A stretch of 64,000 bases of DNA, taken from Escherichia coli (lineage in GTDB: Bacteria; Pseudomonadota; Gammaproteobacteria; Enterobacterales; Enterobacteriaceae). Of this stretch, positions 31,701 to 34,700 are shown in pieces. The stretch is from the NCBI RefSeq assembly GCF_003991155.1, contig NZ_CP031293.1. The stretch is one strand, 5' to 3'. The stretch's first letter is position 1; each line of letters opens with the position of its first letter. The position numbers are program-made.

Positions 31701-34700
31701 GTGAATGAAATGGCAGTAAATATTATCTCTATGAATTAATAAGGCGCTGTGAAGGATAGGGGCAAGCGCAAAATTGCCAGATGCGCTACGCTTATCTGGC
31801 CTGCGCGGTCATTGCAACATATTGAATATAAATGTTTTGTAGGTTTGATAAGGCGTTTACGCCGCATCCGACATGAACAACACGCACTTAGCTAATTATC
31901 AGAGGCACCTCGTAAGGTGCCTTTTTTTAACCGAAGCGAACATCTCGTCCATGCGGTTCATCGAGATCCTGCCACGGACCAATTGAAATAATCCCCGTAG
32001 GGTTGATGGTCTTATGGCTGCGGAAGTAATGATTACGGATGTGATCGAAATTGACTGTTTCGGCAATTCCCGGCATCTGGTAGATATCGCGCAGGAAGCC
32101 ATACAGATTCAGGTAATCGCTGATGCGGTGCTTATCACACTTGAAGTGGGTCACATACACTGGATCAAAACGCACCAGCGTGGTCCACAGGCGAATATCG
32201 GCTTCGGTTAGCTGGTTGCCGGTCAGGTAACGGTGCTGACCTAAAATCTGTTCCAGTCGCGCCAGCGATTCAAACACTTTCGCCACCGCTTCGTCGTAGG
32301 CTTGCTGGCTGGTGGCAAAACCGGCTTTATACACGCCATTGTTAACGGTGTCGTAAATCCAGCCGTTAAGTTCGTCAATTTTCGGTTGCAGAGCTGGTGG
32401 GTAGTAATCTCCCGCTTTCGCACCCAGCGCATCAAACGCGGTATTGAACATGCGGATGATTTCTGCTGATTCGTTGCTGACGATGGTGTGGTTCTTTTTG
32501 TCCCACAGTACGGGAACAGTAACTCGTCCGCTGTAGTGTGGATCGGCGTGGAGATAAAGCTGATACAGAAATTCATGTTGATAGAGCGTGTCGCCGGTTG
32601 CTCCCGGAAAACTGTCATCAAAGGTCCAGCCGTTTTCCAGCATCAGCGGGTTCACTACGGAAACGGAAATAAACGGTTCCAGTCCTTTGAGTTTACGCAT
32701 GATCAGCGTGCGGTGCGCCCACGGGCAGGCGAGTGAAACATAGAGATGATAACGATCTTTCTCTGCGATAAAACCGCCTTTGCCAGTGGGGCCTGGTGCG
32801 CCATCGGCAGTGAGCCAGTTACGAAATGCGGAAGCTGAACGTTGAAATTTACCGCCGGTAGATTTGGTATCGTACCAGGTGTCATGCCAGACGCCGTCAA
32901 TCAGTTGACCCATTTTTCTCTCCTCCAATAGCAAAAACGAGGAGCGTTTCTCCTCGTTTGAGACTGATGGCAAACGCAAAACTGCCTGATGCGCTATGCT
33001 TATCAGGCCTACGAGGTTTCTGCAATGTATTGAATTTGCATGTTTTTGTAGGCCGGATAAGGCGTTCACGCCGCATCCGGCATGAACAACGCGCACTTTG
33101 TCAACAATCTGAAACGAGGAGTGTTCCTCCTCGTTTTTTATCGTTAAGTATAGCGCGTGCTTACCACTTTTTATTCAGCAGGCGGTCGATGCTATACGCG
33201 CCCGGACCGGTAATTGCCAGCAGCAGGAATCCGCCAGAAATTGTCAGGTTTTTCATGAACATCAGCGAGTTGACGCCTTCAGCAAAGTTGCTGTGAAATA
33301 AAAATGCCGTCAGCAGCGTAAAGCCCGCAGTAAACAGGGCTGTGGTACGTGTCAGGAAACCGAACAGGATTGCCAGACCACCACCAAACTCAAGCAGAAT
33401 CACCAGCGGCAGCATAAAGCCGGGGACGCCCATTGCTTCCATATATTGTTGGGTACCCGCGTAGCCAGTAATTTTTCCCCAGCCTGCGGTAATAAACAGA
33501 ATCGGCATTAAAATACGCGCTACCAGTACACCAACATCTTCTAATTTTTTCATCATACTCTCCACTGCGCCGCTCAGGCTGCTGATTGTTTTTTTGTGCA
33601 AGGGCGCGGTATTTGCGTCATTGCTGTCGATGGAGAGAATCATAAACGTGGCGAAGCGTGATTGTTAGCAAGGAAAACTGTCAAAAATCTTCAAAAAATT
33701 TGAGGGATATGGCCGGAATGGCTCCGGCCAGAGAGGTTATTAACCGCGAAGTTGTTGCTGCTTGAGGGTTGTTTTCACCAGACGCCAGGCGCTCCATACA
33801 CCAAAACCGCGTCTGGCCCAGCGGACCAGCATATTAGGATGGCGAATCGTCCAGATAGCCATCACGCTACTGCCAACCAGCGCCCAGGAGCGCAGACTCA
33901 ACAGCATATTCCAGCGACGATCGTAAGCGCCTGTTGCCTCCAGCCATTCACGACGAGTGGCGGAAAGATCCAGCCGTTGTTGCTGGATCTGGCTAAGCAG
34001 TTGCGCCTTACGTCGTTCACGTTCGACTTTACTGCTCACGGGACTCCTCCTCGAGCAGCTGCCGATCGTTTGCCAGCTCATGGCGTGTATGGCGCAGCAA
34101 GGTGGATTTACGCGATTTACGTAACGTCCAGATACCGCCAATCAGTGCCAGTAGCAGCAACACCACGGTGGTGGCAATCATCGCATTCAGGCGATATTGC
34201 GGATCAACCGCCCAAATAATTAGCACCATCAGGCTCATAAGACCAAATGCAGCGAAAAGCATCGTCAGGCCCAGCATCAGTAAAAGTTGAAAGAGATTCG
34301 CTTTTTCCTCTTCCAGCTCCACCACCGCCAGCCGCAGACGTGTTTCCACCATTTCAACCATGATGGAAACAATTCGCTGCCCGATGCCCAGAACGCTTTT
34401 ACCGGGCCCTTGCGCGTGATGAGTGTCCGCCATAATTAACGACGCGACAGCAGAACGCCGAGCACTACACCGATTGCAGCGCCAATGCCCACGCCGGTCC
34501 ACGGATTTTCACGCACATACTCATCGGCACGCGCCGCCGCGACACGGGTTTGTTTGGCGATGGCATCACCGGTTTCACCCAGGCGATAACGGCTCTGTTT
34601 CAGTGCCTGCTCCGCTTTGCTACGAATCTTACTCAACTCTTCTTTCGACTTCTCGCCAGATGAGCTAAGCACCTCTTCCAGCGTATCGGAAAGGGATTTC

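Follow-up and report, generated by a model that had tools for sequence, protein, structure and literature searches.

A 64,000-nucleotide stretch of Escherichia coli contig NZ_CP031293.1 (hereafter the window) carries the genes yqjF, yqjG and yhaH on its minus strand in this order, and both spacers between them contain a repeat of the bacterial interspersed mosaic element (BIME) type. The two repeats, copy A in the yqjG-yhaH spacer and copy B in the yqjF-yqjG spacer, lie on the same strand and bracket yqjG; both are extragenic, being located downstream of yqjG and yqjF, respectively. Copy B is enclosed by two copies of a terminator-like hairpin. The features of the locus are listed below; REP denotes a repetitive extragenic palindromic sequence, iREP an inverted one, and IHF the integration host factor.

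31752-31903, plus strand: BIME-1 copy A, decayed, in the yqjG-yhaH spacer, with a Y-like iREP at 31775-31804, an L linker of 34 nt, a Z REP from 31839 and the right end ...GCACTTAGCTAATTATCAGA
31904-31928, strand not assigned: hairpin GGCACCtcgtaaGGTGCC with a T7 run, terminator-like for yqjG, adjoining the right end of copy A
31927-32913, minus strand: yqjG coding sequence (glutathionyl-hydroquinone reductase), 96.8% identical to K-12 yqjG
32935-32959, strand not assigned: left copy of the putative target hairpin, AAACGAGGAGcgtttCTCCTCGTTT, from the repeat and terminator-like scans
32960-33111, plus strand: BIME-1 copy B, an apparent lineage-specific insertion from the repeat and genome comparisons, with the left end GAGACTGATGGCAAACGCAAAACT, a Y iREP at 32983-33012, an L linker of 35 nt at 33013-33047 with an IHF-like core at 33023-33035, a Z REP at 33048-33082 and the right end ATGAACAACGCGCACTTTGTCAACAATCTG
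33112-33139, strand not assigned: right copy of the putative target hairpin, AAACGAGGAGtgttcCTCCTCGTTT (33112-33136), with the remaining T tract, from the repeat and terminator-like scans
33161-33553, minus strand: yqjF coding sequence (DoxX family), 98.2% identical to K-12 yqjF; its promoter is activated by YhaJ (PMC5031710)

A repeat search returned two gapless direct-repeat blocks, 31761-31838 versus 32969-33046 (81% identity) and 31835-31903 versus 33044-33112 (83%), whose spacings of 1208 and 1209 correspond to a single 1-nt indel between the copies. Comparison with other family members set the homologous unit at 31752-31903 versus 32960-33111 (or 33112), and over this full length of about 153 nt copies A and B are 77% identical. 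The original prediction that direct-orientation repeats bracket yqjG is borne out, with correct coordinates, as is their identification as BIMEs, which can be specified as the BIME-1/RIP type. Its estimate of about 85% identity is close, but the description 'near-identical' is too strong for the full elements.

The prediction of paired hairpins on either side of copy B (32935-32959 and 33112-33136) is also correct; they are 23/25 identical (92%), lie 177 nt apart and each consist of a perfect 10-bp stem with a 5-nt loop. Their predicted gene-strand RNA folds have energies of -15.1 kcal/mol (z -3.2) for the left hairpin and -17.2 kcal/mol (z -5.4) for the right one, and the terminator-like consensus scan flagged 32959->32935 on the minus strand and 33111->33137 on the plus strand. 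On the gene strand the left hairpin retains a U5 tract and is located 21 nt upstream of the yqjG start codon, and the stem of the right hairpin is followed by UUU only. A chance origin of the repeats and the hairpin pair is excluded, because the Z-REP core pattern is expected 0 times in shuffled sequence and the left-versus-right flank score of copy B, 21, exceeds that of every one of 1,640 cross-locus flank pairs (maximum 19), the control set described below.

Judged from their sequence, both copies are ordinary BIME-1 (RIP/RIB-type) elements. The plan of BIME-1 comprises about 153 bp, in which a Y and a Z REP in inverted orientation surround a 35-nt linker that contains an IHF-like site; the outer ends, GAGACTGATGRCAAAC ... 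GTTTGTCAACAATCTG, are conserved and form an imperfect inverted pair. The REPs of copy B are TGCCTGATGCGCTATGCTTATCAGGCCTAC (Y) and GTAGGCCGGATAAGGCGTTCACGCCGCATCCGGCA (Z), the iREP ending with CTAC and the REP beginning with GTAG; copy A is arranged alike, with stems that have decayed. The linker (B, 35 nt; A, 34 nt) is conserved across the 41 loci surveyed below, and on the minus strand at 33023-33035 it contains a predicted IHF site, ATTCAATACATTG, matching the consensus WATCAANNNNTTR at 12 of 13 positions. The terminal inverted repeats, GAGACTGATGGCAAA and the reverse complement of TTTGTCAACAATCTG, agree at 11 of 15 positions, and both ends are conserved from locus to locus. In a BIME-1 the Z REP would be of subtype Z1 rather than Z2, and the long linker and the presence of one copy per locus are compatible with that class. 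There are at least 40 related places per E. coli genome, and when one genome per species was scanned for the exact BIME-1 pattern, it was found only in Escherichia (25 loci).

The predicted RNA fold of copy B (-55.6 kcal/mol, z -4.2) is the long hairpin characteristic of a REP doublet. Copy A, also present in K-12, folds no better than shuffled sequences (z -0.7), which is consistent with an old, decaying copy. The hairpin at its right end has a fold energy of -14.1 kcal/mol (z -4.2); its T7 run is on the plus strand, corresponding on the gene strand to an A run upstream of the stem. On the left side of copy A a matching decayed copy of the GGCACCtcgtaaGGTGCC hairpin is marginal only (scores 7-11). 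In the feature table of MG1655 (NC_000913.3) no repeat or REP feature is listed for the yqjG-yhaH spacer (3252011-3252303; L033, 6012-6304), so that the K-12 spacer is unannotated for REP despite a recognisable, decayed BIME-1.

In Rfam, the model ES036 (CssrF small RNA) matches the BIME-1 linker at 33005-33045 on the minus strand with 38.4 bits versus a gathering threshold of 37.6; because of this match, the family appears to be built on BIME-1 linker sequence. The model naRNA4 matched the Z REP weakly, and beyond these models of REP-derived small RNAs the Rfam scan found no RNA family. Two more REP clusters occur in the window, at 28630-28735 and 54640-54745. They consist of REP pairs whose linkers are short or otherwise different; the GAGACTGATG/CAATCTG ends are missing, and no flanking hairpin duplication is seen by eye.

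Occupied and empty alleles

Occupancy of the yqjF-yqjG spacer was determined in 5,426 complete E. coli genomes, the set to which all genome counts refer, using a 301-nt probe across the spacer at a coverage of at least 80%. Copy B is present in 88 of them, SMS-3-5 included, and Escherichia sp. E1V33 has it as well. A 1,701-nt query is matched by most E. coli genomes in two pieces with a span 167-178 nt shorter. In K-12 the spacer is 69 bp long and contains one hairpin, CAAAAACGAGGAGcttcCTCCTCGTTTTTTATCG, with a predicted fold of -18.9 kcal/mol (z -5.9), a U5 tract on the gene strand and, on the opposite one, T6. With its GC-rich stem-loop and U tract, it is at the sequence level a typical bidirectional intrinsic terminator.

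The window allele reads CAAAAACGAGGAGcgtttCTCCTCGTTT/GAGACTG...CAATCTG/AAACGAGGAGtgttcCTCCTCGTTTTTTATCG, where slashes mark the element boundaries, with the junctions ...CTCCTCGTTT/GAGACTG...CAATCTG/AAACGAGGAG..., and is 177 nt longer than that of K-12. The 177-bp difference is made up of the 152-bp BIME-1 and a second copy of the 25-nt palindrome, directly duplicated, and the A tract stays with the left hairpin copy and the T tract with the right one. Copy B thus appears as a lineage-specific insertion polymorphism. In the occupied allele the yqjF-proximal hairpin would lose its U tract and the BIME would join the yqjF 3' region, the U tract remaining with the distal hairpin, just upstream of the yqjG ribosome-binding site. 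The source strain is in a minority (88/5,426) with a BIME that bears a putative IHF site between two terminator copies in the yqjF 3' region.

Among other Escherichia species, MOD1-EC7003 is empty at this site, with one hairpin, and E1V33 is occupied with identical junctions, its element being 97% and its yqjG 93.4% identical to those of the window. A recent introgression of the whole region from E1V33 is not supported, as the flanking genes are E. coli-like (96.8-98.2% identical to K-12 versus 93% to E1V33).

Two further insertions were found in this spacer. In E. coli E69 (L016, 1338-1474, equivalent to window 32959/32960) a 66-bp half element follows directly after CTCCTCGTTT; it has a BIME-type end, CAGATTGCTGGCAAAGTGCACA, and one REP, is in the opposite orientation and is not followed by a second hairpin. 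Its position implies that the foot of the yqjF-yqjG hairpin has been hit more than once, independently, and the half element may represent a one-ended insertion mode. In E. coli PEC403 (L156, 1411-2690) a 1,279-bp IS621, an insertion sequence (IS) of the IS110 family, lies inside the Y REP of copy B at window 33009/33010, directly after ...CTTATCAGGCCT. Apart from this IS, the PEC403 sequence does not differ from the window here, and the insertion is of the REP-targeted kind.

Three further loci also have empty alleles with one hairpin each, and the hairpin differs from locus to locus. Between uvrB and yvcK, the spacer of strain AHB24 is 37 bp long and contains one copy of the hairpin AAGCCGGAAtattcTTCCGGCTT, and E69 has a BIME-1 between two hairpin copies; K-12-like strains are occupied here, with a decayed left hairpin copy. 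Downstream of fbp, a metagenome contig carries a perfect 23-24-nt duplication around the element, an allele occurring in 0/5,426 genomes, and strain SCPM-O-B-9504, 98.8% identical in the flank, has a single hairpin. Since the occupied allele there is rare and derived, polarity at this locus is that of insertion. At the site downstream of yhaH, the occupied allele is that of E1V33, in which the duplication is perfect over 22 nt; the hairpin of MOD1-EC7003 is single. A locus downstream of zapB (L013) allowed no occupied/empty comparison, its right flank not being conserved in E. coli.

Tandem arrays of BIME-1 plus hairpin were observed in two sequences, L025 (14179-14530, period 324) and L028 (about 11100-11400), such as unequal exchange between hairpin repeats would generate. 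In the uvrB-yvcK spacer of E. coli S1-ZIM-01-A (L032, about 395-505) a single terminator hairpin is accompanied by a non-REP insert of about 110 bp, GC-rich and boxC-like by eye, whose termini CAGATTAACGATCAAG...GGTCAGCAATCTCGG resemble BIME-1 ends. This suggests that such ends may be shared by more than one repeat family.

Recurrence of the hairpin duplication in the BIME-1 family

Family members were collected by a species genome scan and a metagenome scan for Y-REP...Z-REP pairs spaced as in BIME-1 (120 loci), and 135 BIME-1 copies were clustered by their outer flanks into 41 independent loci. At each locus the 52 nt strictly outside the left end were compared with the 52 nt strictly outside the right end, and 1,640 cross-locus pairs of flanks, likewise strictly outside the element, served as the control. 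A score of at least 13-14 was obtained at 18/41 loci versus 0.3-0.5% of the cross-locus pairs, and a score of at least 10 at 21/41 versus 4%. The flank repeats always adjoin both element ends, at constant positions. The duplications are 16-28 nt long if one tandem-array case of 32 nt and one partial match of 12 nt are set aside, and their median length over all 20 scored loci is 21.5 nt.

The duplicated segment is different at every locus and nearly always folds as a complete hairpin, as exemplified by AACGCCGGAttgcTCCGGCGTTT, AAGCACCTTTTGCAAGGTGCTT, AAGGGCCGCtttcGCGGCCCTT and CGGGTGGtaacaCCACCCGT. At 17 of the 20 loci the direct score is higher than the inverted one, and the loops agree in the direct sense, which indicates a true direct duplication rather than a fold-back. 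Runs of A often precede the left copy and runs of T often follow the right one, a pattern expected for intrinsic terminators split by insertion. A hairpin of -8 kcal/mol or lower is present at one element end or more at 34/41 loci.

Proposed mode of integration and competing explanations

Taken together, the data make it probable that BIME-1 integrates at palindromic terminator hairpins with direct duplication of the whole palindrome, copy B being one case. The anatomy of the sites, their occupied and empty alleles and the recurrence across the family are shown directly; from this pattern we infer the direction of the event at yqjF-yqjG, the cleavage geometry and the involvement of an enzyme. 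The ancestral-type site, as in K-12 and most strains, would be one bidirectional terminator hairpin, and the occupied site would be hairpin, BIME-1 and hairpin. The joints are constant (hairpin...T/GAGACTG and CAATCTG/A...hairpin) and symmetric on the two strands. Each of the two palindrome feet would be cut, the simplest setting being an extruded cruciform, in which the feet are adjacent, and gap repair synthesis would then copy the entire palindrome onto both sides. Because the feet are adjacent in a cruciform, an enzyme with a small fixed stagger would yield a palindrome-sized duplication, and the length of the target-site duplication (16-28 nt) would be set by the hairpin and not by the enzyme. 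The broader proposal, that BIME-1 and by extension REP doublets undergo structure-directed integration at extruded terminator palindromes, duplicating the whole hairpin, is tentative.

Several observations weigh against integration of this kind. About half of the loci, including fepA-entD, the site of the closest relative of copy B, have no flanking duplication, so the signature is either not obligatory or easily lost; decay may account for such loci and for those where one side alone has a hairpin, as may a second pathway like that of the E69 half element. Three of the 20 loci score higher in the inverted sense. At fbp the loop is GCAA in the empty allele (L154, about 805-835) and TTGC in both occupied copies (L072, 11760-11960); this single reverse-complemented loop could reflect a flip linked to the insertion or an independent inversion of the palindrome. 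The presence of the occupied yqjF-yqjG allele with the same junctions in a different Escherichia species, E1V33, implies that the event there is old, and the distribution in E. coli could reflect repeated precise loss rather than recent gain. We know of no transposase that makes variable-length duplications tracking a palindrome. The IS200/IS605-type Y1 enzymes, relatives of the REP-associated tyrosine transposases (RAYTs), make no target duplication (PMC3333891). Finally, a search of the flanks of K-12 rayT for BIME-1 ends found none, and short-linker z2/y REPs are present instead, so that no enzyme can be assigned to BIME-1. Cleavage by TnpA_REP occurs at C/T dinucleotides, which do not coincide with the BIME-1 boundaries.

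The old age of the yqjF-yqjG event raises the question of polarity. If the hairpin-BIME-hairpin state were ancestral in Escherichia, the K-12-type single hairpin would be a precise-deletion scar, formed by slippage or recombination between the 25-nt hairpin repeats, although an older duplicating insertion would still be required. In keeping with this, E1V33 has identical junctions despite the divergence of yqjG, the hairpin copies differ from each other at 2 of 25 positions in the window and at more in E1V33, direct repeats around a 150-bp palindrome are a classic deletion substrate, and the arrays in L025 and L028 show that hairpin repeats do recombine. However, the single hairpin is found in MOD1-EC7003, another Escherichia species, and in 98% of E. 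coli genomes, and the perfect duplication at fbp, absent from all complete genomes, points to gain. The higher identity of the E1V33 element (97%) than of its flanking gene would also fit short-patch transfer. Reversed polarity is therefore considered unlikely, though it is the most serious of the alternatives; for yqjF-yqjG itself, the data are compatible both with one gain that recombination then spread and with an ancestral polymorphism followed by repeated precise loss. It is much less probable that the second hairpin is secondary, the BIME having inserted beside a hairpin, followed by tandem duplication of hairpin plus BIME and loss of one BIME. The 15/41 loci with a hairpin on one side only, the E69 half element and the tandem arrays are compatible with such a route, but it would require each of about 20 independent loci to have passed through two additional precise steps, non-array loci have no second BIME beyond the hairpins, the occupied/empty pairs show only the single-hairpin and hairpin-BIME-hairpin states, and the arrays are explained more simply by unequal exchange between pre-existing hairpin repeats. 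The least probable explanation is a fold-back, in which a half unit of hairpin, end and REP was copied in inverted form around the linker, generating BIME-1 and the second hairpin at once. The locus is indeed spanned by a large imperfect palindrome (arms 32933-32974 and 33097-33138, 79% complementary), half elements exist, and three loci score higher inverted; yet the loops match in the direct sense at the other 17 (for example GTAA/GTAA, TTAT/TTAT and CGTTT/TGTTC), and both REPs, Y and Z, are conserved throughout the family, as is the asymmetric linker, indicating that the element moves as a unit and is not rebuilt at each site. Loop orientation thus disfavours an inverted origin of the second hairpin.

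An explanation of a different kind is that of the original prediction, in which A and B form a special near-identical pair, yqjG is a cassette that can be deleted or amplified through them, and the hairpins act as insulators. Direct repeats 1.2 kb apart do surround exactly one gene, and BIMEs can be rearrangement endpoints: in MOD1-EC7003, which lacks yhaH, the single hairpin downstream of the yhaH position runs directly into the linker/Z-REP half of copy A (L026, about 8450-8620), a layout that places a deletion endpoint inside the copy A equivalent. Nevertheless, full-length 152-nt matches to copy B occur elsewhere in every E. coli genome at 92-93.5% identity, the best being the BIME-1 that fills the fepA-entD spacer, and 32 of 41 BIME-1 loci elsewhere are nearer to copy B than copy A is. 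Together with the 77% identity of A and B, this rules out a local duplication of A into B, and the two copies are best regarded as independent family members; the extended colinear identity expected of them in a dot-plot is real, but is a property of the whole family and not a special tie. At about 82% identity with many mismatches, the pair would also be a poor RecA substrate. A yqjG internal probe matched 5,421/5,426 genomes, in no more than two places per genome, and a synthetic A-by-B recombinant junction was found at 80% coverage or more in 0/5,426, which rules out deletion or amplification of yqjG through the BIMEs at the population level. Both copies occur together in the 88 occupied genomes only, so the substrate is rare anyway. 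As to insulation, the hairpins are not a purpose-built pair but two copies of the single K-12-type terminator between yqjF and yqjG, and since this hairpin is older than the BIME, any insulation by it is not a product of the pair. The cassette explanation is accordingly very improbable; yqjG is not a mobile cassette, and the message at the level of this locus is modest.

Relation to known elements and implications

With regard to the element itself, nothing distinguishes copy B from the described BIME-1/RIP/RIB, which combine a Y with a Z REP, inverted relative to each other, have a long L linker of conserved sequence, an IHF-type site and a size of about 140-150 bp, and are present as single extragenic copies at the 3' ends of transcription units. 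Their IHF site, this location and their presence or absence among isolates are already known (Gilson, Bachellier and Hofnung; Boccard and Prentki 1993; Oppenheim et al. 1993; summarised in PMC3333891 and PMC1187871). The added feature is the flanking duplication of a locus-specific hairpin.

REPINs mobilised by RAYT/TnpA_REP are likewise REP doublets forming a long hairpin and are presumed to be non-autonomous mobile units (Bertels and Rainey, PMC3116915, PMC3337134; Ton-Hoang 2012, PMC3333891); tandem REPIN units that include flanking sequence have been presented (Bertels and Rainey, Fig. S7 of PMC3116915). However, Y1/HUH single-strand transposition of the IS200/IS605 type is expected to proceed without target duplication, whereas direct duplications of 16-28 nt are common at BIME-1 (18-21/41 loci), and K-12 rayT is not flanked by BIME-1 ends. 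Bacterial miniature inverted-repeat transposable elements (MITEs) resemble BIME-1 in being small and non-coding, with imperfect terminal inverted repeats, a long stem-loop and direct repeats of the target (PMC3184786). Their duplications are 2-10 bp long and of fixed length set by a DDE transposase, in contrast to those of BIME-1, whose length follows the palindrome and which always coincide with a whole hairpin; REPs are stated in the same review to lack MITE signatures. No parent IS sharing the BIME-1 terminal repeats was identified, although no ISfinder-type search was made for one.

Association of REP-type repeats with a separate palindromic target is known from GTAG-23 of Thermomicrobium roseum and CGTC-1 of Halothiobacillus neapolitanus, where REPs are inserted within target palindromes (Di Nocera et al. 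2013, PMC3733652). There the REP splits a palindrome of repeated consensus (arm-REP-arm), while BIME-1 has a complete, locus-specific hairpin on each side. Use of a gene-end DNA or RNA hairpin as a safe insertion site is also shared with mobile elements that target terminators or REPs, but such elements code for an enzyme of their own, and they leave the hairpin unduplicated. Among them, class C bacterial group II introns target intrinsic terminators. IS621, IS1397 and ISPpu9 insert into REPs (PMC1525189).

No description of the flanking terminator-hairpin duplication at BIME-1 was found in the literature covered, a scope outside which key papers of the 1990s lie, and the hairpin-sized duplication is the part that could be new and mechanistically useful. 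The hairpin signature at about half of the BIME-1 sites is a clue to the insertion mode of this element. As a recurrent footprint, it combines a complete terminator hairpin on each side, single-hairpin empty alleles, constant junctions and a duplication length that follows the palindrome, and gives a testable target and geometry for the spread of REPs and BIMEs. It also offers a rule, in that perfect hairpin duplications would mark young insertions, and predicts products of precise excision and tandem amplification. If the proposed mode is true, the variable-length, palindrome-sized target-site duplication would be unlike that of any characterised transposase, and the signature would be the first concrete footprint of the colonisation of gene 3' ends by REP/BIME elements, explaining their location at terminators.

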